A stretch of 44,379 bases of DNA from sequence record ON548431.1; one strand, written 5' to 3'. This stretch comes from Escherichia phage PEC9. A program made the position numbers and the translations under genes. This document shows positions 9,387 through 44,328 of the stretch, in pieces; positions within the stretch are counted from its first letter, which is position 1, and each line of letters opens with the position of its first letter. Below the pieces are notes generated by a model. That model ran no database searches. It saw only the letters and a list, made by a program, of their open reading frames with translations, and was not told the DNA's origin.

Positions 9387-10151
9387 TTAGCGCGGAATGC
9401 CGCAAATCTCGTTGAGTGTTTTCACATCCAGCGCCACCGCCGTGGATTTTGGCTTGTCCGGGTATGGGATGAATTGCTCAACTTCAGGCCATGCCTTAAT
9501 CAGCTTCTTGTCAGTATTGTGCAGGTCCAGTACACCGGTAACGGTGAGTTTGAACGCATCATACTTCGCGCGCAACTCGCGACGGGCCTTGTCGTTGCGG
9601 TCCAGGCGCTTACAGAAATCATGATCCGCCGGGAAATCTGCACGGCAGCGTGGCTTATAGATCGGCAGCGCTTTCCCGTCCTCGTCCACTTCACACACTG
9701 AAGCCAGCATAACTTCTTCAAACCCCGGTACGATATCGCCGAGATCGGGAGATAGCTTATTCATGTATTTATATTCCCAGTATCCGCGATGTACGCGGTA
9801 TTGGTGGCCGTCACCGCTCAAGGATAAGGTGCGAACATTTCCGCCTGCGTTGATTTCGAAAGTGGCGTCGTAAACGCTGCCGATACCTTTCGGGCGGTCG
9901 GTGTTATAACTATATGTCGCCTTGTTGGTGTAGACGCAGACGCCGTACATCTGCGACGGGTCATCGCTGATTGCCTCGATACGCTCGCGTAGCGCGGAGA
10001 ATGTGCGAATGCCGTCCGGCATACAGTCCAGCGTGATTGCGTACGCCAGATCGCGTGAGTCCATCATGATTGTTTTGGCTTCGGTAGCGATTTCGTGGTC
10101 GCGCAGGATGTTAGCCAGGATCTGATTTTTAATATCTTTCGTCAGTCTCAT
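9387..10151 (-). CDS. Hypothetical protein (254 aa), accessory gene inside virion module
   Basis: Minus-strand ORF with GAGGA RBS; C-terminal Cys-x16-Cys-x7-His-x2-Cys cluster suggests a zinc-binding domain; no family recognised. Confidence 0.55.
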   Translation of the reverse strand: MRLTKDIKNQILANILRDHEIATEAKTIMMDSRDLAYAITLDCMPDGIRTFSALRERIEAISDDPSQMYGVCVYTNKATYSYNTDRPKGIGSVYDATFEINAGGNVRTLSLSGDGHQYRVHRGYWEYKYMNKLSPDLGDIVPGFEEVMLASVCEVDEDGKALPIYKPRCRADFPADHDFCKRLDRNDKARRELRAKYDAFKLTVTGVLDLHNTDKKLIKAWPEVEQFIPYPDKPKSTAVALDVKTLNEICGIPR

Positions 10152-10189
10152 TTTTGTGTCCTCATGTTGGGGCTTTCGCCCCGTTTGGT

Positions 10190-10504
10190 TTAGTTAAATT
10201 TGATGTTGCCACCGGTGGAAGTTAAGCGGGCACATACAGCTTCAACGGCATCAACGCACATGAAATCGTTAAAGGCTTCGACCAGGGCGTTTATGAAAGA
10301 TGCCGGAACCAGGCCGCAAGCCGGATTATCGAATGCCGCGGAGTTGATCGCCGCTTTTGCCGCTTCAGAAGCATTCATGCTCTGGCACAGATTCAGCGCT
10401 TCCGCGTTACGCATTGCGTGAAAGGTAAAGGTATTCGCTACGGTAGCTTTATTGAAACGGGCCATTGCGGCGTCTACTGGAGTTGCTACGGTCATGTTAG
10501 TCAT
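10190..10504 (-). CDS. Hypothetical protein (104 aa), accessory gene inside virion module
   Basis: Internal ATG at 10504 with AAGGAAG RBS chosen within ORF 10190-10558; Ala-rich, no motif recognised. Confidence 0.45.
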   Translation of the reverse strand: MTNMTVATPVDAAMARFNKATVANTFTFHAMRNAEALNLCQSMNASEAAKAAINSAAFDNPACGLVPASFINALVEAFNDFMCVDAVEAVCARLTSTGGNIKFN

Positions 10505-10532
10505 TTTGTCTTCCTTCATATCTCTGTTGGTG

Positions 10533-10556
10533 TGCAACCAATATACTGCAACCAAC
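10533..10556. promoter_or_regulatory. Two direct copies of TGCAACCAAT / TGCAACCAAC in a divergent intergenic region
   Basis: Read at 10533-10542 and 10547-10556, between minus-strand start 10504 and plus-strand start 10659. Confidence 0.45.
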
Positions 10557-10576
10557 ATTCACAATGCAAGCGAATT

Positions 10577-10604
10577 TTGCGATTATTTTTATCGCTGATA
10601 ATAT
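10577..10604 (+). promoter_or_regulatory. Candidate sigma70-like promoter for scaffold/capsid genes
   Basis: TTGCGA, 16-bp spacer, TAATAT; about 55 bp upstream of ATG 10659; weak match. Confidence 0.25.
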
Positions 10605-10658
10605 TAAGGCGTGAAGTCAAGCGGGTGGCCCGCTTTGCCACAATCCCAGGGGGATAGC

Positions 10659-11363
10659 ATGAAACTTACTAAAGCAGAATATGACGCGTTGCCCGAGGGC
10701 ATGAAGGCTTTATTTGTTGCCGATGGTGATGGGTATAAATCCACGTTCATGACCGCCGAAGAAGTACAGGCGGAGATCAAGGGTCTGAAAGACAACAACG
10801 CGAAGCTGGTTAGCGAGAAGAAAGCAGAAGCCGAACGTCGCGCCGAAGCCGAGCGCCTTGCGAAAGAGAAAGAGGAAGCCGCCGCGCGCAAAAATGGCGA
10901 CCTCGAAGCGATCGATAAGTCCTGGAAAGATAAGTTCGCAAAACATGAAGCGGACACATCTGGGAAGATCGAAGCCTACCGCAAGCAGATCCACGACCTA
11001 ACCATCGGCAGCGCTGCCAAAGATTTGGCCTCGAAGCTGTTCGGTAAGAATGCAGGCATCATGCAACGCCACGTTATGGACCGCCTCACGCTGGAAGACG
11101 GCGAAGACGGCAGCCTGAAGGTGCGGGTGTTGAAGGACGGCAAACCATCCGCGCTGACTATGGAAGAACTGGAGAAAGAATTCCGTAGTAACGCCGATTT
11201 TGCATCCGTCCTGGCTGGCACGCCAGCCGGTGGTGCGCCGAGCAAACCGACGCAGGTCGTAGAAGATGTGAAGTCGAAAATCACTATGGGCCACAGCTTC
11301 GGTATCGCTGACTTGACGAAACAGGCAGGGGATATCATCGCTAAAATGGGCGACGACGAGTAA
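10659..11363 (+). CDS. Head scaffolding protein
   Basis: 234 aa, highly charged and helical (KKAEAERRAEAERLAKEKEEAAAR), directly upstream of major capsid gene; ATG 10659 with AGGGGGA RBS. Confidence 0.55.
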   Translation: MKLTKAEYDALPEGMKALFVADGDGYKSTFMTAEEVQAEIKGLKDNNAKLVSEKKAEAERRAEAERLAKEKEEAAARKNGDLEAIDKSWKDKFAKHEADTSGKIEAYRKQIHDLTIGSAAKDLASKLFGKNAGIMQRHVMDRLTLEDGEDGSLKVRVLKDGKPSALTMEELEKEFRSNADFASVLAGTPAGGAPSKPTQVVEDVKSKITMGHSFGIADLTKQAGDIIAKMGDDE

Positions 11364-11367
11364 GCAG

Positions 11368-11393
11368 ATCGCCCGCGAAAGCGGGCGATTTTG
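11368..11393 (+). terminator. Rho-independent terminator after scaffold gene
   Basis: ATCGCCCGC-GAAA-GCGGGCGAT hairpin followed by TTTG. Confidence 0.5.
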
Positions 11394-11460
11394 CGAGCGC
11401 GTAAATCTAAGGTAACATTAACGACACTGAGCGAATGCTCATAACTCAAAGGATTCTAAT

Positions 11461-12561
11461 ATGTCTTTAACAGTGTTCCAGCGTAAACTCGTCACCGCGG
11501 TTACGCAAATGATTCCCGATAACCTGAACGTGTTCAACGCTGCCGCTAACGGCGCTGTTGTTCTCGGCACGGGTGAAGTGCTGAAGGACGTTGTAGAAAA
11601 AATGTCCGTAGGCTTGATCGCCAACCTCGTTACCGACCGTAACGCCTACGCCCCTGTCGGTACTCCGGCGACCGCAAAAGTGCTGGCGCGTATGCTGACC
11701 AACTCGGTTAACCTTTCCGCGAAAGTTGGTCCGGTAGCAATCACTAAGGCCATGATGGCTAAGATCGAAACCAACGTTAACAGCGTTGCGGCTGAGATTG
11801 CGGCGCAGGCTACCCAAGCGATTATGCTGCACTACCTGAAAGCGGGTATCGGCGCAAGTAAAGCGGCTATTGAAAGCAACGCAGCGGCAAAATACACCCA
11901 ACCGGCGCGCGTTGACGGCGTGGGTGGTCGTACCTTCCCGACCCTGGCAGACTTTCCGCTGGCGGCTTCCAAGTTCGGCGATCAGGCGTCTTTGATTAAA
12001 TCCTGGTTTATGGACGGCGTTACCTGGGCGAATTTCATTGCATACCAGGCGCTCCCATCTGCCGAGCAGGTATTCGCGATCGGCGATCTGCAGGTAATGG
12101 GCGATGGCCTGGGCCGCCGTTTCATTATCTCCGATGCCGCTGCCGATGCAATGGGCGCGGGTAAAATGCTGGGCCTGGTGCCTGGCGCGGTTGCAGTTAC
12201 CACCAACGGCCTCGATATGCTGGCGCAAGAAAAAGGCGGTAACGAGAACATTGAACGCTGGTGGCAGGGCGAGTTCGACTTCAACGTGGCTGTTAAAGGC
12301 TATCGTCTGAAGGCGTCCGCTCGTACTCCGATCGAAGGTGTTCGCTCGTTCAAACTGGACGATATTACCACTTCCGCTAACTGGGAACTGGATCAGGGCC
12401 AGGTAGACAACGCACCGGCAACCGTTCAGGATGTTGGCGCTGTTGGTGACGGCGATACTAAAGGCCGTCGTAAGACCCAGGCCGCACAGGCAGTGCCGAC
12501 CCGTCACATCAAGGAAACGGCGGGCGTACTGGTTACGCTGACTGCGACCACAGCGTCCTAA
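11461..12561 (+). CDS. Major capsid protein
   Basis: 366 aa, AAGGA RBS, follows scaffold and is followed by a strong terminator; call by order and composition. Confidence 0.7.
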   Translation: MSLTVFQRKLVTAVTQMIPDNLNVFNAAANGAVVLGTGEVLKDVVEKMSVGLIANLVTDRNAYAPVGTPATAKVLARMLTNSVNLSAKVGPVAITKAMMAKIETNVNSVAAEIAAQATQAIMLHYLKAGIGASKAAIESNAAAKYTQPARVDGVGGRTFPTLADFPLAASKFGDQASLIKSWFMDGVTWANFIAYQALPSAEQVFAIGDLQVMGDGLGRRFIISDAAADAMGAGKMLGLVPGAVAVTTNGLDMLAQEKGGNENIERWWQGEFDFNVAVKGYRLKASARTPIEGVRSFKLDDITTSANWELDQGQVDNAPATVQDVGAVGDGDTKGRRKTQAAQAVPTRHIKETAGVLVTLTATTAS

Positions 12562-16129: not shown

Positions 16130-16133
16130 CGAA

Positions 16134-16450
16134 GCGGGACAGGCGGGACGTCCCGTTTTGTCCCGCCACCATTAAACTGCATATATACTCACTACCAGTG
16201 CATAAACTAAAAGCGGGACAGGGGTGCTGTCCCGATCTGTCCCGCCCCTTAAAAGTGAATAGCTAAGCGGTTTTTCTGCATAAAACAAACGGGACAAAAA
16301 ACGGGACAGACCAGGGGCGGGACAAAGCGGGACAGCACCCTGTCCCTGCCAGTGCTGCCGCGGGTTTTAGCCGATCGGGACAGGCGGGACAAAGCCCAGT
16401 CTTTCAGACTAGACGGGGGTCATTGGCCCCCCTCGTCTGAGACTGAATAA
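16134..16450. repeat. GGGACA-rich iteron-like repeat region with palindromes, ending in a 75-bp structured element
   Basis: About 14 copies of GGGACA(G/A) in both orientations; palindrome GGGACGTCCC; GGGACAG-N5-CTGTCCC units; 16290-16450 is a near-copy of 44109-44269. Confidence 0.7.
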
Positions 16451-16513
16451 GGTTTGTTTTAAATTCGCTGATACAATGACCGACGGCAACTGCATAAAAA
16501 GGGGGACTGCATA

Positions 16514-26590: not shown

Positions 26591-26644
26591 GGTATCATCA
26601 CCTATATTTGGTCGAGTTTTAGTATTACACCGCTCGATCAAGAA

Positions 26645-26654
26645 TGCAACCAAT
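26645..26654. promoter_or_regulatory. Recurrent motif TGCAACCAAT upstream of tail fibre gene
   Basis: Exact 10-mer 17 bp upstream of ATG 26671, in a divergent intergenic region. Confidence 0.45.
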
Positions 26655-26670
26655 TTACGAGGATTTAGCT

Positions 26671-28503
26671 ATGGCAGCGGGTACACTATCCGTAACGAAT
26701 AACAGCAAGGCGGTTGTCGGGGTAGGCACGACGTTTACCGCGTTTAAAGCCGGAGACTTCTTATCGCTGGTAGTGGGGCAAGTACCCTACACTGTTGCGA
26801 TCGCGTCCGTAGAAAGCGACACCGCGATTACGCTTGTGCTGCCGTTCGACGGACCCACGGCAACTGGCCTCGCGTGGGATGGCGTTAAGCGCGATACCAT
26901 GTCGCTGGCAACGATGGGCGTAACAGTACAGGCGCAGAAAGCGTTGCGCTTGATGATCGCGGACGAAAACAACTGGCGCGCAATCTTCGGAGACGAGGAA
27001 GAAATCGCGGTAACGCTGCCGAACGGGCAAGTTATGCAGGGTATGTCGTGGGGCTATCTGTCGCAATTGCTGAAGGAAGTTGACCCCGTTGAAATGCGCA
27101 ACCTGCAACAACAAGCCGCGGCATCTGAAGCAGCAGCGCTGGTATCGCGTAATGAGGCCGAAGGCTTCAAGAACGATACCAATACCATCAAGACGCAGAC
27201 CAACCAGATTAAGGCAGATACGCAGGCTATCCGCGACGCCACCAATACCATCAAGACGCAGACCAACAAGATTAAGGCAGATACGCAGGCCATCAAAGAC
27301 CAGACGAACCAGATCAAGACTGACACCGGCGTTATGAGGGACCAGGCCAACGCTGCGAAGACTGACGCGCAAGCTGCCAGCGCAGCCGCGCAGGGATTCC
27401 GCGATCAGGCCGAGGAGTGGGCGCAAAGCGTTAACGCGGATAACCTGCTAACAAAATCCGGCAACCTGGCAGGGCTTGCGGATAAATCGGCGTCGTGGAA
27501 GAACCTTATGCCTGCGGGGCCGCTGCGAATTGGGGCGCACCCCGTTGCGGACCTGGATGCCGCGACCCGGAAATGGACGCTGGAGCGTTTTACCAAAGGC
27601 GTGGCGGAGTCGTCGTGGACTGTCAGGAAAACCGTCACCACCACACCACAGAACGGCACTGTCGTCCGTGGCGGTGAGGTGGAATCGAGATATTCCAACC
27701 CAACATCTACGCAGTTCGCCCGTCTGTACTCAAGCTCTGTATTTGGTTCTTCTAACGCGGCTGTTGTTGAGGCAGAGGGTTCTTCCAGGCACGCTTATAA
27801 ATTCTATGAGGATGGCACAGTTGACTTCCGACAGTCAGGGAAGACCAACCCATTCCGCATGTATACAAATATTGGAACATGGAATGGCATAACGGACGCC
27901 ACGGCATCCAACTTGACAACTAACGGAATGGACAGGGTGGCCATTTCGAGCGGCTCAGATACTCTGGTGCACGGATATTCTATCGGCGGCACCAAACCTA
28001 ATGGATATCCAACAAAGGTTGGATATCACATGTATATTCCAGGCAATAATGCATTTGGTATTGCTTGCATGGTAATCGGTGGGGATAACGGAAAATTTTG
28101 CCGTTACTTTTTTGACATTGATGGTCTAATATATGGTTCGACCGATTACGGGAACTTCAGTTATATGAAAAATGGCACTTCTGACTTACGTGTAAAACAC
28201 GGCATCGCCCATGTTGGAGTTGACAAATCATACTCTAATATTAAAGGGCTGGAATTTGTAGAGTTCATTTATGATAATGACGAACAAAATCGAGTTCGGC
28301 ATGGCGTGATTGCACAGCAAGCAGAGGTTGTTGAGCCTTTATATGTCAAGACGCGCAAATATGTTGGCAATAATCCAGGAGAGATTGTGGAGCAGAAGGA
28401 ACTGGACACTACGCCGATGCTTCTGGATACCATGCATGTTGTGCAGACGTTGATGCAGAAGATCGAGGCTATGGAGGCCGAGATCGCGGCGCTGAAGAAA
28501 TGA
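26671..28503 (+). CDS. Tail fibre with predicted C-terminal intramolecular chaperone domain
   Basis: 611 aa from ATG 26671 (GAGGA RBS); internal repeats TNTIKTQTNQIKADTQAI; C-terminal region ending ...EAMEAEIAALKK resembles autocleaving chaperone domains of phage fibres. Confidence 0.65.
   Translation: MAAGTLSVTNNSKAVVGVGTTFTAFKAGDFLSLVVGQVPYTVAIASVESDTAITLVLPFDGPTATGLAWDGVKRDTMSLATMGVTVQAQKALRLMIADENNWRAIFGDEEEIAVTLPNGQVMQGMSWGYLSQLLKEVDPVEMRNLQQQAAASEAAALVSRNEAEGFKNDTNTIKTQTNQIKADTQAIRDATNTIKTQTNKIKADTQAIKDQTNQIKTDTGVMRDQANAAKTDAQAASAAAQGFRDQAEEWAQSVNADNLLTKSGNLAGLADKSASWKNLMPAGPLRIGAHPVADLDAATRKWTLERFTKGVAESSWTVRKTVTTTPQNGTVVRGGEVESRYSNPTSTQFARLYSSSVFGSSNAAVVEAEGSSRHAYKFYEDGTVDFRQSGKTNPFRMYTNIGTWNGITDATASNLTTNGMDRVAISSGSDTLVHGYSIGGTKPNGYPTKVGYHMYIPGNNAFGIACMVIGGDNGKFCRYFFDIDGLIYGSTDYGNFSYMKNGTSDLRVKHGIAHVGVDKSYSNIKGLEFVEFIYDNDEQNRVRHGVIAQQAEVVEPLYVKTRKYVGNNPGEIVEQKELDTTPMLLDTMHVVQTLMQKIEAMEAEIAALKK
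27178..27303 (+). repeat. 63-bp tandem direct repeat (2 units plus partial third) inside tail fibre gene
   Basis: Unit 27178-27240 and unit 27241-27303 differ at a few positions; partial third unit follows. Confidence 0.7.
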
Positions 28504-29148: not shown

Positions 29149-29670
29149 TTATTTAAGTGCGCCAGTCACCAGTGTTTTTTCCATGTTACGGAAATCTTCC
29201 TGCGTCATGCAGATTTTCGATCCGTCTTCGCCCGTGAGCACGACCATAGGCTGGACGTCCTGGGCTACAACTCCAAAATTGGCGGCGTTAACCGTCTTGC
29301 CAACAGATGAAGAAGGATGCCACGTCCCCGCGACGTCGATGGGCCAACCTTTGAGGCTATCGTATTGCGCTGCCGTTGTATCGATCTGAATCTCGTCATG
29401 CACGGTCATGTAAGACTCGCCCAGCAGGGCGGCATACGCCACCAGATCCACGATGTTATCTTCCTGGTGTTTACGGTGCTGGCGCACCAGCTTCAGGCAG
29501 ATCAGGAAGGTCCAGGCTTCTTGCTCGGACAGGTCGCGCCCGGTAAGCGCGTTAAACACGGCAGCGATTTGTTTAGCGCTGCGTTCTTCTTTCGCGTTGT
29601 CATAGCCGTTTTCTTTCCCGCGCTGTTCCATAGTGGTGGCGGCGTTTTTGCAGTATTCGTATGCTTTCAC
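29149..29670 (-). CDS. Hypothetical protein (173 aa)
   Basis: GTG start at 29670 with AAGGG upstream, or internal ATG 29631; no motif recognised. Confidence 0.45.
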   Translation of the reverse strand: MKAYEYCKNAATTMEQRGKENGYDNAKEERSAKQIAAVFNALTGRDLSEQEAWTFLICLKLVRQHRKHQEDNIVDLVAYAALLGESYMTVHDEIQIDTTAAQYDSLKGWPIDVAGTWHPSSSVGKTVNAANFGVVAQDVQPMVVLTGEDGSKICMTQEDFRNMEKTLVTGALK

Positions 29671-29724
29671 AGTATTACCCTTTTTAGTGAGGGGGCTGTA
29701 TTGCCCCCGACACGTTTACTATAG

Positions 29725-29747
29725 TGCAACCAATCTATTGGTTGCAA
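29725..29747. promoter_or_regulatory. Perfect palindrome TGCAACCAAT-cta-ATTGGTTGCA
   Basis: Read directly; overlaps the stop codon of the minus-strand HAD gene and lies about 55 bp upstream of the next minus-strand start; adjacent GGGGGC-N6-GCCCCC hairpin at 29691-29708. Confidence 0.55.
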
Positions 29748-30205
29748 GTGAATTTTGCAACGTTTATCGCGTAAATTTTCGGGACCAAATCACCACACGC
29801 CCGACGAATTGCTGCGATGTTCTTCGGGCAGTCTTCAATGATGACCAGTTCCGACACGTCCGCATAACAGACCATTTTGAACACGGCGCACGCCTTAAAC
29901 TCTGGCGGCGGGGTGTCGTCCAGCATGTGGCGCATAAACAACCTGCCTACCGGGAAGACCTCCAATTGCTCGGCGGTGGTTTCCCAGCATTCTCGCTGCC
30001 GGTTGGTCAGATACGCGATCTCGAAGCCTTGCTCTTTATACATGCGCAGTAGCGGCAGCATATCCATGTTCAGGTCTTCGCGGACGTGCGCCTTGTGCCA
30101 CTTCGCCCAAAAGGTGGATTTAGTTTTTACACCCGGCACCAGGTCGGCACGCGCATCGCTTGAACCGTTAATAACGCCATCCAAATCGCAAATCAGTAAT
30201 TTCAT
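29735..30205 (-). CDS. HAD-superfamily hydrolase (nucleotidase/phosphatase-like)
   Basis: 156 aa; N-terminal DxDGV motif (LICDLDGV) typical of HAD phosphatases. Confidence 0.5.
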   Translation of the reverse strand: MKLLICDLDGVINGSSDARADLVPGVKTKSTFWAKWHKAHVREDLNMDMLPLLRMYKEQGFEIAYLTNRQRECWETTAEQLEVFPVGRLFMRHMLDDTPPPEFKACAVFKMVCYADVSELVIIEDCPKNIAAIRRACGDLVPKIYAINVAKFTCNQ

Positions 30206-31586: not shown

Positions 31587-31638
31587 GGTTAAATCCTCAT
31601 ATAAAAAAGGGCATCCAAACCGGACACCCTCAATATAA

Positions 31639-31665
31639 TGCAACCAATATGATTATGCAACCAAT
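31639..31665. promoter_or_regulatory. Two direct copies of TGCAACCAAT, 17 bp apart
   Basis: Read at 31639-31648 and 31656-31665, about 55 bp upstream of minus-strand start 31586. Confidence 0.5.
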
Positions 31666-31989
31666 TTACGCATAAAAGTTAGGGTCGCGTGCAACGTCTA
31701 CCAAATACAGATTGCTGATTCGGTTGCCGTAGTGGCCTGGCGTGCGCTGACGGCACACTACGGCATAGCCTGGAGGTATTGTATTGCCAGTCTCAATGAT
31801 CCACGCCACGCGTGCGCCAGACAGCGTCTTGCCGTTGTACTCGATACGAGTACCGCCATCGGCAGTGTTAAGGTTGCCAATCTTGCTACCGGTAGACTTC
31901 AGGCGGATGACGCCCGTTTTACTGTCGTAGGTGAATAGCTGATTGGTCATTGCTACCGAAAAATCGATGGCTTCGAATGTGGTATTCAT
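31666..31989 (-). CDS. Hypothetical protein, weak HNH-endonuclease-like C-terminal pattern
   Basis: 107 aa; segment GHYGNRISNLYLV loosely resembles HNH H-x-D-G-N...N-L motif; not confident. Confidence 0.3.
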   Translation of the reverse strand: MNTTFEAIDFSVAMTNQLFTYDSKTGVIRLKSTGSKIGNLNTADGGTRIEYNGKTLSGARVAWIIETGNTIPPGYAVVCRQRTPGHYGNRISNLYLVDVARDPNFYA

Positions 31990-34597: not shown

Positions 34598-34876
34598 CTA
34601 CGCGACCAATTCAGCAACCAATAAATCGCAGTCGGATATGTTGTCGATAACGCGAACGTCAGCACCGCGGCGGGCCATTCGCTCATGTTCACGTACCTGG
34701 TGCGGCTTCGGTTTTCCTCCGGGGCGCTTCACTTCGACGAACACTATTTTGCCGTTGATGATAATAATCAGGTCGGGCGCACCTGCGCGCCCCTCCCATG
34801 CCAGTTTTCGGCAGAATCCGCCAACATCTTTCACCCGTCTCATCAGGTGACTTTGTATCTTGCCCTCTGGTGTCAT
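34598..34876 (-). CDS. VRR-NUC-type nuclease
   Basis: 92 aa from ATG 34876; segment GAPDLIIIINGKIVFVEVKRPGGKP matches the PD...E-x-K core of VRR-NUC domains; directly downstream of polymerase. Confidence 0.55.
   Translation of the reverse strand: MTPEGKIQSHLMRRVKDVGGFCRKLAWEGRAGAPDLIIIINGKIVFVEVKRPGGKPKPHQVREHERMARRGADVRVIDNISDCDLLVAELVA
34614..34622. promoter_or_regulatory. Motif core GCAACCAAT
   Basis: 9-mer at 34614-34622, about 60 bp upstream of minus-strand start 34557. Confidence 0.35.
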
Positions 34877-37391: not shown

Positions 37392-38177
37392 TTAACGGCG
37401 GCGACGTTTACGTGGTGCTTCGTCTTCGTCGTCTTCGTCCTCATCTTCATCGTCGCGCGGCTTACGACGTTTACGAGGTTTCTCATCTTCGTCGTCTTCG
37501 TCGTCATCGCGGCGCTTGGACTTTTTGGACTTGCGCGGCTTGTCGTCTTCGTCATCGTCATCACGACGTTTTGACTTTTTGGCCTTGCGCGGGCTTTCAT
37601 CTTCGTCATCGTTGTCCAGGTCTTCGTCGGAGCAAGAAGACCCGCCACCGCCGAAGGCTTCACCGTCATCACGGAAGCGTAAACCCAGCAAGCCAGCACC
37701 GAGTCCCTTGCCGTTGGTGTTGTTCCACGCCCAAATATCCAAGGACACGTTGCAATAACATCCGGAGTAGATCTCCTGGCCTTCGATCTCGTCGCCTTCT
37801 ACGGTCAGACCTTGTTCAGTCTGCTTCTCGCCGAGTGACGTTTGAATGTTTGGCTGTTTGAACGATTTGGCGTTGATGTACAACATGCCTTCGAATTCTT
37901 CGGTCACTTCATCGCGCTCGTCACCGTCGCGAACTGCGCATTCCTTAGAATCCTGTGCGTAGTGGCGGTCCATCCACTTATCGGCGTTCTTCTCGGATTT
38001 CAGCTTGTCGGTGAGCACTGCGCGCGCTGCCGCTTCCACTTTGTCCACCTGCGGATCTTCTTTATCAAGAAGAATCACTGCACGGTATGCCGGTTTTTGA
38101 CCATCCTGTTTAGGGGTATCGCGTTCCCAAATTTTAAGGAAACATACGCGCACATTTTTCAGGTTGACTTTAGCCAT
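37392..38177 (-). CDS. SSB-like protein with alternating acidic/basic repetitive C-terminal tail
   Basis: 261 aa from ATG 38177 (GAGGA RBS); C-terminal about 80 aa made of repeats such as DEDE-KPRKSKKSKRR-DDDEDDEDE; co-located with Cas4-like nuclease; SSB role inferred. Confidence 0.5.
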   Translation of the reverse strand: MAKVNLKNVRVCFLKIWERDTPKQDGQKPAYRAVILLDKEDPQVDKVEAAARAVLTDKLKSEKNADKWMDRHYAQDSKECAVRDGDERDEVTEEFEGMLYINAKSFKQPNIQTSLGEKQTEQGLTVEGDEIEGQEIYSGCYCNVSLDIWAWNNTNGKGLGAGLLGLRFRDDGEAFGGGGSSCSDEDLDNDDEDESPRKAKKSKRRDDDDEDDKPRKSKKSKRRDDDEDDEDEKPRKRRKPRDDEDEDEDDEDEAPRKRRRR

Positions 38178-38232
38178 TTTCCAATTCCTCATTTTAACAT
38201 GTATCGGGGCTATTGTGAGCCACCCCGTTCGG

Positions 38233-38267: not shown

Positions 38268-38510
38268 TCAAGCACTTTCATTAAAAAGATTTCTGGTCAC
38301 GTAGTTGGTAGCGTTCTCGACCCCGCTTAACGGCGGTCGGTCGATGTTCTTCTCCACCCAGTCGACGGCAGCGTCACTATATCCGTCGTCCAGCCAGCGG
38401 GTCGGATGGCGAATCATCCACGCCACCATTAACACGCCTTGCACGCAATGCAGGATAAAGCCCAGCGCGCCGAGCAAAAACATCAATAAGATTGCGAATA
38501 CTTTATTCAT
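38268..38510 (-). CDS. Small membrane protein (80 aa)
   Basis: GAGGA RBS; two hydrophobic helices (FAILLMFLLGALGFILHCVQGVLMVAWMI). Confidence 0.45.
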   Translation of the reverse strand: MNKVFAILLMFLLGALGFILHCVQGVLMVAWMIRHPTRWLDDGYSDAAVDWVEKNIDRPPLSGVENATNYVTRNLFNESA

Positions 38511-41208: not shown

Positions 41209-41230
41209 GAAGGGAGTCAACAACTAATTT

Positions 41231-41265
41231 AAAAAAAAAAGCGCCGAAGCAAAATGCGACGGCGC
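41231..41265 (-). terminator. Hairpin with A10/T10 tract, terminator-like on minus strand
   Basis: Plus strand: ten A then GCGCCG-N13-CGGCGC; on minus strand hairpin is followed by ten T. Confidence 0.4.
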
Positions 41266-41336
41266 TAACCAATAAGAGACAATGAGACGGGAATTATTAT
41301 TACACGCGTGCGCGCCCGTTTCAATATCCAAAGGAT

Positions 41337-41365: not shown

Positions 41366-41396
41366 CGTTGGTCATTAGCCAACAGGAGACTGAATT

Positions 41397-41726
41397 ATGA
41401 ATATCAAAGAAGCAATTGAAGTGTTATCTAATGCAATCCGCGGCGAAGCGGGTAAATCCTGGTATTACACAAATGCGGTGGATACTCTGTTATTTGAAGT
41501 GTCCAGATTATCGCGTGCTGAGAAGGAGCTTACCGCGAAGCTGGAATTACTCAACGGCACGGCAGCAAGCAAGCTGCAAAAGCACAATGAAGAAATGGAA
41601 GAATACAAAAAACAGGTTATCCGTTTGCGCGCCGAGGGCAAATCCTGGGCAATGATCGCTGAGTTGACAGGAATTAATCAGAGCACCGTGCGCTCCTGGG
41701 TACGCAATAATAAAACTTCGAAGTAA
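41397..41726 (+). CDS. Small HTH DNA-binding protein (putative transcription regulator)
   Basis: 109 aa; C-terminal helix-turn-helix-like segment (SWAMIAELTGINQSTVRSWV); AGGAG RBS. Confidence 0.5.
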   Translation: MNIKEAIEVLSNAIRGEAGKSWYYTNAVDTLLFEVSRLSRAEKELTAKLELLNGTAASKLQKHNEEMEEYKKQVIRLRAEGKSWAMIAELTGINQSTVRSWVRNNKTSK

Positions 41727-44011: not shown

Positions 44012-44056
44012 CATTGGTTGCCATTTTGAGTGTTTTTAGCCGGTCGCATTGGTTGC
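44012..44056. promoter_or_regulatory. Two direct copies of CATTGGTTGC just downstream of primase stop
   Basis: Read at 44012-44021 and 44047-44056; reverse-complement copy GCAACCAATG at 44329-44338 on the far side of the repeat. Confidence 0.45.
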
Positions 44057-44108
44057 CGTGTAGTGTGAATATAATGCATAGTTATGCAATAAAACTGCAT
44101 AAAGTAAG

Positions 44109-44269
44109 CGGGACAAAAAGCGGGACAGACCAGGGGCGGGACAAAGCGGGACAGCACCCCTGTCCCGCCCCGGATGACGCGGCCTGGCGGGGAGCGGGAC
44201 AGGCGGGACAAAGCCCAGTCTTTCAGACTAGACGGGGGTCATTGGCCCCCCTCGTCTGAGACTGAATAA
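44109..44269. repeat. Second copy of the ~160-bp GGGACA-rich structured repeat (last 75 bp identical to 16376-16450)
   Basis: Left part 44109-44165 about 90 percent identical to 16290-16346; 29-bp divergent middle; right part 44195-44269 identical to 16376-16450. Confidence 0.75.
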
Positions 44270-44328
44270 AATCCGGGATTGCATAATACACGGCAGCACA
44301 TTGGAAATCGCGGTCGTCGCTGAACTAG

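Follow-up and report, generated by a model that had tools for sequence, protein, structure and literature searches.

The question raised by the region 10533-10604 of Escherichia phage PEC9 (site A) is what its parts are: two copies of a 9-nucleotide motif, TGCAACCAA, followed by a companion sequence, CAATGCAAGCGAATTTTGCGATT at 10562-10584, that resembles a sequence found elsewhere in the window, by which we mean the whole stretch of 44,379 nucleotides that was analysed (record ON548431.1). A sequence-only reading of the window had seen in this likeness the hint of a larger composite control element, shared by a late (virion) and an early (replication) transcription unit. We consider it rather probable that site A forms the central part of a bidirectional promoter region, whose motif copies are operators of a helix-turn-helix (HTH) protein and whose companion is a back-to-back pair of -35 hexamers.

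The window is a Dhillonvirus genome, of the HK578/SSL-2009a type, and Dhillonviruses are common E. coli phages in defence-system and therapy studies. From 9800 to 11800 it shows 100% identity with Escherichia phage PEC14, and 92-98% identity with more than 120 Dhillonvirus genomes (HK578, SSL-2009a, SO-1 and others). A literature search yielded no transcription start, binding or timing data for any Dhillonvirus, and neither the motif nor Dhillonvirus promoters or regulators were found described: a full-text search with motif words returned primers only, and the genome papers on YD-2008.s and vB_EcoS-B2 do not mention promoters.

The divergent region ahead of the scaffold gene

The site homologous to A in SSL-2009a has on one side the leftward hypothetical genes orf8 and orf7, and on the other the rightward head scaffolding and major head genes. 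The layout in the window is given below, where O1 and O2 are the two motif copies, P_left and P_scaffold the two predicted promoters, and L173 and L174 two relatives more distant than the 16 genomes of the close comparison:

9387-10151, minus strand: Nmad5-domain gene, next after the orf8 homologue
10190..10519, minus strand: leftward accessory gene, orf8 homologue, with its start at 10519 or 10504
10533..10541, minus strand: motif copy O1 (TTGGTTGCA on the minus strand, TGCAACCAA on the plus strand), invariant in 15 of 16 genomes despite differing leftward genes
10540..10545, minus strand: predicted -10 of P_left, TATATT in 15 of 16 genomes, TACATT in one; TAGTAT is the equivalent in L174
10547..10555, minus strand: motif copy O2 (TGCAACCAA on the plus strand), in the predicted leftward spacer, at about -22 to -14
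10564..10569, minus strand: predicted -35 of P_left, TTGCAT, with an 18-nt spacer; left end of the companion
10565..10580, plus strand: companion 16-mer TGCAAGCGAATTTTGC, covering the leftward -35 and a 7-bp gap and reaching the fourth base of the rightward -35
10577..10582, plus strand: predicted -35 of P_scaffold, TTGCGA, invariant in 16 genomes; here L173 has TTGTGA and L174 has TTGAAT
10596..10604, plus strand: predicted extended -10 of P_scaffold, TGaTAATAT, with a 16-nt spacer and TG at -15/-14; invariant in 16 genomes
10619..10635, plus strand: stem-loop AAGCGGG-TGG-CCCGCTT at the 5' end of the predicted scaffold mRNA (RNAalifold)
10659..11363, plus strand: head scaffolding protein gene, ATG at 10659, Shine-Dalgarno GGGGGA at 10649-10654

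Since the scaffold operon faces the leftward genes, each direction must have its promoter in a gap of about 140 bp. Both predicted promoters have hexamers and spacers of the sigma-70 type (16-18 nt), P_scaffold also having A at -11 and T at -7, and the spacer of P_left being a suboptimal 18 nt in the PEC9 genome. P_left (TTGCAT-18-TATATT) would serve the mosaic slot of accessory genes, and P_scaffold (TTGCGA-16-TGaTAATAT) the scaffold, capsid and tail operon; the window holds no second copy of the scaffold promoter block. The companion would thus be two -35 hexamers back to back across the 7-bp gap, and on the minus strand its A-tract, AAAATTC, occupies the position expected of an UP-like element of the leftward promoter. 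O1 covers the final bases of the predicted leftward -10 as well as the predicted start site and, together with 10526-10532, forms an imperfect palindrome, TTGGTTGCACACCAA. We read O1 and O2 as putative operators, copies of a genome-wide site aTTGGTTGCa, placed in the spacer and over the -10 and start of P_left: a protein bound there would block RNA polymerase at P_left, and would have the scaffold start about 60 and 74 bp downstream of it.

Two other readings of these letters were discarded. The scan's own match in this region, a rightward promoter TTCACA-17-TGcGATTAT, was rejected because its -35 falls in 9 hypervariable bases and because the promoter has no equivalent in L173 or L174. The left end of the companion, taken as a third, degenerate operator, gave only 6-7 matches out of 10 and was dropped.

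The stem-loop starts 8 nt past the predicted rightward start. Its stem of 7 pairs has compensatory double changes at 3 of them (RNAalifold, 8 relatives), which argues that the DNA just 3' of this predicted start is transcribed and structured. Equivalents of the hairpin are kept in L173-L176, out to 49% identity of the scaffold protein. Similar hairpins, at 29691-29708 and 38205-38225, follow predicted promoters and may be 5' stabilisers; an Rfam search of the window returned no match.

On the other side, the -10 of the leftward unit is followed by CACCAACA, then by a ribosome-binding site. The slot next to the scaffold gene (9387-10519, minus strand) is mosaic, and the relatives L003-L017 and L173-L176 hold different genes in it: orf8 and Nmad5 in the window, a RusA-like gene in SO-1, a PAPS-reductase-like gene with Nmad5 in L173, and other small genes elsewhere. 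Every variant starts directly 3' of the conserved CACCAACA leader. A 16-nt element, TTGGT(C/T)GCACACCAAC, found at 72-87 and at 10526-10541, is an imperfect palindrome (TTGGT-N5-ACCAA) that comes after a TAnATT box and immediately 5' of the ribosome-binding site of two unrelated genes; a weaker version, TTGGTCATTAGCCAACAGGAG, stands ahead of the regulator gene at 41370.

The footprint of site A was read in 16 close genomes, which carry at least 4 versions of the leftward gene set. Homology breaks at about 10525, right at O1, and the alignment holds from GTTGGTGTGCAACCAA rightwards: a point of accessory-gene exchange becomes visible here, the mosaic junction lying at the putative operator pair. 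Both motif copies and a 42-nt block, 10566-10607, are almost invariant, and substitutions saturate the 9 nt that separate O2 from the companion. One genome has C at 10565, where the companion begins; inside the 42-nt block, the variable positions are 10571, between the -35 hexamers, and 10594, in the rightward spacer. The leftward -35 has an invariant TTGC followed by two variable bases (TTGCAT/AA/GC/AC), and a deletion of 1 nt in some genomes gives a leftward spacer of 17 nt.

More distant relatives, L173-L176, were found through the scaffold protein. L174 (63% scaffold protein identity) keeps the pair and TTGCAAGCTAAATTTTGAATTATTTTT, and its leftward layout is unchanged (TTGCAA-17-TAGTAT, the spacer containing O2). 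In L173 (68%), the pair and TTGTGA-16-TATGAT remain, and TGCAAGCGAA is lost; there the pair adjoins the rightward -35, and a leftward promoter, apparently rebuilt, can be read from O2's own TTGCAA and a new TATTAT. The loss of TGCAAGCGAA while the rightward hexamers persist is what is expected of a companion made of two parts. L175 and L176 (55% and 49%) keep the rightward TTGCAC-17-TATATT and the hairpin, and the motif is absent. Equivalents of the scaffold -10 (TATGAT/TATTCT/TATATT) are found at the same distance in L173-L176.

The companion and its counterpart at 29743

The two copies of TGCAACCAA and the sequence that follows them were correctly located and spelled in the sequence-only reading, which had further likened the companion to the sequence that follows a palindrome at 29743-29762. 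At this second place, site B, the palindrome is TGCAACCAATCTATTGGTTGCA, at 29725-29746, and TGCAAGTGAATTTTGCAACG, at 29743-29762, overlaps and follows it. The likeness is there to the letter, TGCAAG[C/T]GAATTTTGC being identical at 15 of 16 positions; the 16-mer TGCAAGNGAATTTTGC occurs exactly twice in the window, at 10565 and 29743, and at site B its first 4 bases belong to the palindrome arm.

How much this likeness exceeds chance is another matter. With the motif excluded, the local alignment AG[C/T]GAATTTTGC...TTTATCGC scores 21, against 15.7 +/- 2.2 for shuffled sequences, and 69 of 2000 shuffles reach that score (p~0.035). In an all-versus-all comparison of the 11 motif regions, with cores masked, the pair formed by sites A and B ranks 2nd of 55 (z=3.8, empirical p=0.01). 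Since about 0.5 pairs at p<=0.01 are expected by chance among 55, the companion stands only marginally above chance: a p~0.035, together with a p~0.01 that belongs to 1 of 55 pairs, neither clearly passes nor clearly fails. These counts speak for pure chance, that is, an 11/12 match beside two motif clusters in AT-rich promoter DNA, as does a repeat search with a 12-nt seed, which does not return the companion. Against it, both sites place and orient the companion alike with respect to a motif copy and -35/-10-like hexamers, and the copy at site A is conserved out to L174; we regard it as an unlikely explanation.

If the likeness reflects a function, is this function carried by the DNA at both sites? 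The companion at site B (29743-58), together with the right arm of the palindrome, forms the last eight codons (VAKFTCNQ*) of the HAD-phosphatase-like gene 29735..30205, which ends in ...GTT GCA AAA TTC ACT TGC AAC CAA TAG; its stop codon is the centre of the palindrome. Among 15 genomes, this companion varies only at synonymous third positions (GCA/GCG, TTC/TTT), like the coding sequence around it. A composite element would be conserved as DNA at both sites, and this is not what we find: site B is coding, and half of the site A copy is absent from L173.

These facts bear on the explanation closest to the earlier proposal, in which the companion is a distinct cis element, either the site of a second factor or an extension of the motif site, that forms a composite with the pair for late and early units. 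It would account for a 15/16 identity confined to two sites that both adjoin motif copies, for the second rank of the A/B pair in the masked comparison, and for a companion that is nearly invariant at site A and largely retained in L174, at 63% scaffold identity. However, the companion is found at just 2 of the 11 motif clusters; the significance is gone after correction for 55 pairs; the copy at site B drifts synonymously; L173 has the pair and the scaffold promoter without TGCAAGCGAA; and two -35 hexamers are enough to account for the conservation at site A. Site B, moreover, has no rightward gene and no usable hexamer spacing: the counterparts of the scaffold hexamers are 11 nt apart there, so that no rightward promoter is possible. 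We hold a distinct element to be quite improbable.

What the two sites do have in common is a leftward promoter layout. On the minus strand, site A reads AAAATTC(G)C-TTGCAT-8 nt-TTGGTTGCA-n-TATATT and site B reads AAAATTC(A)C-TTGCAA-8 nt-TTGGTTGCA-n-TATAGT (AAAATTCAC ahead of TTGCAA; n = c), the A-tract AAAATTC falling at about -45 to -39 of both leftward promoters, with a loose match to the UP consensus. The prediction at site B is thus:

29718..29760, minus strand: predicted leftward promoter, TTGCAA (29742-29747)-18-TATAGT (29718-23)

The spacer of this promoter contains a motif copy (29725-33), a second, inverted copy extends over the -35 (29738-46), and the promoter is followed by a hairpin, then by the GTG start of a DUF6378 gene at 29670. 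Both sites would serve leftward non-virion genes in this arrangement, the orf8/Nmad5 pair at A and the DUF6378 gene at B, and the same leftward build is found at 31656, there without the companion. Of the proposed control element shared by late and early units, the common leftward layout is what survives; the link between late and early does not, and the late, scaffold side fails, as the scaffold promoter overlaps the companion at site A only (-35 TTGCGA, 10577-10582). The sequence at 10565 would resemble that at 29743 because the latter is another leftward promoter of the same build, and the companion would add little, because it would be made of promoter hexamers and not of a new control element.

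The common layout could also have been inherited: the two leftward promoter regions would be paralogous copies of a cassette spread by recombination, the companion being merely a part of it. A gapped alignment on the minus strand extends over about 55 nt (GCGATAAA...GCAAAATTC.CTTGCA...TTGGTTGCA.TATA), other short blocks are common to promoter regions, such as AACTTTTATGCG at 20-33 and 31670-31683, or ribosome-binding regions, and the motif pair lies at a mosaic junction. On the other hand, the alignment score is modestly above that of shuffles, and the C-terminus of a protein constrains site B, which a spread cassette would have had to fit. Common descent has a small chance of being the explanation, and it is compatible with the promoter reading, not opposed to it.

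The motif across the genome and its candidate binder

The evidence for the motif is of another order. The exact 9-mer has 10 copies in the window, against 0.39 expected, and 0 of 100 shuffles get to 10; its core, TTGGTTGC, has 18, 21, 22 and 21 copies in the window, SSL-2009a, Ioannina and SO-1, with about 1.3 expected. In a count matrix of 82 copies, information is added only by the preceding base (A in 58) and the following base (A in 48): with positions -1 and +8 alone informative, the site is 10 bp long, aTTGGTTGCa. In SSL-2009a, 13 of the 21 copies are in non-coding DNA, which makes up 6.3% of the genome (binomial P=3e-11). As is expected of an operator, the motif is a repeated specific site, far above chance and concentrated in non-coding DNA.

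The copies occupy about 11 places, mostly as pairs: 41/72, 2915/2938, 10533/10547, 26645, 29725/29738, 31639/31656, 34609/34621, 38234/38250, 41200, 44014/44049 and 44328. Pairs are spaced by 9 to 35 bp, in direct and inverted arrangements. We know of no sigma-54, CytR or other host-factor site that fits the motif. A scan of IMG/VR for paired motifs returned mostly unrelated chance matches. The window made it tempting to take the motif for a -10 with its start region (TAnATTGGTTGCA), an idea abandoned when the matrix of 82 copies gave almost no information in the flanks.

Where do these copies lie with respect to predicted promoters? All promoters are here consensus matches, at 8-9 of 12 positions, and since the motif includes a -35-like TTGCA, some overlap with them is built in. 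In a consensus scan, the hexamer pairs overlapping motif copies are TTGACT-18-CATACT at 2909 (+), TTGACC-17-TAGATT at 38271 (-), TTGCAA-18-TATAGT at 29747 (-) and TTGACT-17-TAATAT at 41220 (-); by eye, one can add TTGCAT-17-TAGATT at 45 (+), TTGCAT-18-TATATT at 10569 (-), TTGCAT-17-TATATT at 31656 (-) and TTGCTG-17-TATAGT at 34617 (-). The predicted promoters of the regulator and helicase-primase genes (TTGACA-17-TAGTTT, 41338), of the terminase (TTGGTG-17-TATAAT, ~4291) and of the scaffold have no motif in their core. Relative to the -10, the motif is found at about -39..-31, where its TTGCA is the -35, at -22..-14, or at -8..+2, in either orientation; in one relative, L020, the orientation of a motif copy at site B is reversed and the hexamers are kept. 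As read from these predicted hexamers, the geometry is that of polymerase-blocking operators, and not of a fixed promoter element or of orientation-dependent stoperators. We infer repression from this geometry alone, and activation is as plausible at some sites: at 44049, the motif lies at about -32 to -24 before a perfect TATAAT, with no -35.

This last site, of a promoter at about 44075, is also an argument for reading the motif as a promoter-specificity element, recognised by a phage factor that redirects the host RNA polymerase in the style of the T4 MotA box, or by an activator. So is the -35-like TTGCA of the motif, which supplies the apparent -35 at 45, 26649, 31656 and 34617, and so is the match of the candidate protein described below to the sigma-70 region 4 family. 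Yet a MotA box is held at a fixed distance, about -30, where it replaces the -35, whereas the motif takes three positions, including one over the start site, in both orientations; most of the associated promoters already have acceptable -35 hexamers, and the flanks hold no positional information. A specificity element is, in our view, distinctly unlikely, and we retain operators as the preferred reading.

Some other observations concern these same places. On the minus strand of 31607-31664, the predicted promoter TTGCAT-17-TATATT stands between the end of the HNH gene and a hairpin (31631-31607) that resembles a terminator and has a T-run: transcripts of this promoter would begin within the first arm of the hairpin, and could escape a terminator that stops upstream read-through. 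The minus-strand gene of a Cor-like lipoprotein (MKTLIMICAVLLSGC..., start 26592) diverges at 26592-26680 from the tail-fibre gene, whose start is likely ATG 26672, not 26644; the lone motif copy at 26645 overlaps the leftward -35, and no convincing rightward promoter for the tail-fibre gene was found in this interval.

The window also holds longer repeats. A block of 195 nt is duplicated with 84% identity at 16256-16450 and 44075-44269 (wider: 16130-16470, 44095-44270), the first copy between the tail chaperone and tape-measure genes and the second just 3' of the helicase-primase gene. It is rich in GCGGGACA/TGTCCCGC repeats (about 7 copies, 44095-44215), with a hairpin at its end, and its equivalents are annotated as repeat 'region A' and 'region B' in the SO-1 record; it is a candidate replication origin or packaging site. 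In-frame tandem repeats occur in the tail-fibre gene (27173-27340, 63-nt units) and toward the end of the single-strand-binding protein gene (37402-37596, 9/54-nt acidic repeats).

The protein that would bind the motif is most likely the phage's own:

41397..41726, plus strand: candidate motif-binding regulator, 109 aa, a long helix then a C-terminal HTH (Sigma70_r4_2/HTH_23)

It matches the profiles HTH_23 (3e-7), Sigma70_r4_2 (7e-7) and HTH_28, and is the sole DNA-binding match among 20 small or unassigned proteins. Its PHROGs family, labelled 'transposase', is specific to Dhillonvirus-type phages. Its 13 homologues diverge at their N-termini and are identical over the C-terminal 60 residues, which include the recognition helix. 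An AF2 model (mean pLDDT 86) has a 58-residue helix running into the helix-turn-helix. Sequence and fold searches of the PDB returned only generic HTHs of the LuxR/resolvase type, with non-significant E-values, and a search of IMG/VR for distant homologues returned Dhillonviruses only. The predicted promoter of the gene, TTGACA-17-TAGTTT, is consensus-like and motif-free.

In the loci compared, the motif and this protein co-occur. Loci at 73-76% nucleotide identity that encode the regulator have 12-14 motif copies at equivalent places, one of which falls just after the regulator gene's own promoter. Four loci from two more distant phages (~71 kb, partly overlapping) have 0 motif copies and no regulator homologue. 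In one of these motif-free phages, for which the syntenic slot before the helicase-primase gene was recovered, the place of the regulator is taken by a 79-aa HTH_3 gene, and both have a different palindrome, AATAGTAT(G/T)CTATTA, in the divergent region 5' of the scaffold gene. This replacement pattern supports the assignment of the regulator, in few lineages: the co-occurrence rests on two motif-free phages and could reflect common ancestry. The motif is probably the operator of the 109-aa protein; for a protein whose long helix probably dimerises, the spacing (9 to 35 bp) and orientation of the pairs are unusually variable. Motif and candidate regulator together give a testable map of about 11 regulated promoters.

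The palindrome of the motif-free phages lies at 9877-9900 in L176 and 9850-9875 in L175; in one of these phages (L177), looser AATAG-N5-CTAnT variants stand in several intergenic gaps, and an HTH_3 gene occupies the regulator slot. Within the early divergent region of the window, between the leftward early promoter and the regulator gene, the minus strand of 41231-41324 carries a promoter-like TTGAAA-17-TGtAATAAT and, some 60 nt further on, a strong terminator (GCGCCG...CGGCGC plus T10); a small RNA may be encoded there.

Comparison with known systems

The closest parallels differ in which part of the arrangement they share. Mycobacteriophage L5 is one, with its gp71 'stoperators', 13-bp asymmetric sites reportedly described by Brown et al. 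in 1997 (cited in PMC11447400). In the immunity of this temperate phage, stoperators act on elongation and all point the same way relative to transcription. Like L5, the Dhillonviruses are siphophages with many dispersed, short, asymmetric intergenic sites (10 bp here) and one small single-site-binding HTH protein, here a candidate. Unlike in L5, the motif orientations are mixed (about 12 with and 7 against the direction of the promoter), both occurring at equivalent promoter positions, as the reversed copy at site B of L020 shows, and the sites overlap core promoters; and unlike the temperate L5, the genus is described as lytic.

The operators of lambda Cro/CI, and those of phi29 p4 at A2b/A2c-A3, are palindromes, present at a few places only, to which dimers bind; p4 also aids the opposite late promoter. 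The likeness with site A is that regulator sites are packed in a short divergent promoter region, where a bound protein could shut one direction. The sites here are, in contrast, single 10-bp sites at about 11 places with spacings of 9-35 bp. One may conjecture that the HTH protein is a global Dhillonvirus switch, acting through about 20 single 10-bp sites to shut off early and middle promoters, with O1 and O2 silencing the leftward direction and stimulating or insulating the scaffold promoter. We give this conjecture little credence; if true, O1/O2 (at about -60/-74) would be an early/late switch like that of phi29 p4, in a coliphage genus without a described transcription programme.

Coliphage TLS (Tlsvirus) has 21 copies of 21-nt direct repeats, aaATAGCACnnnTTGnTAAAA, whose function is unexplained; they have been suggested to act as stoperators, enhancers or UP elements, and sigma-70 promoters proved few in that phage (PMC11447400). 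TLS and the Dhillonviruses are alike in being virulent E. coli siphophages that use the host polymerase and have about 20 conserved, short, mostly intergenic elements. The elements differ in sequence and length, and the copies here pair either way on promoter-like hexamers, unlike the direct repeats of TLS.

Finally, the predicted architecture of site A is that of back-to-back bacterial divergent promoters: -35 hexamers on opposite strands 7 bp apart, spacers of 16-18 nt, TAnnnT -10 hexamers and an extended -10 TG. Its A-tract, at about -45 to -42, is placed as in divergent promoters with UP-like A-tracts, with a loose match to the proximal UP element.
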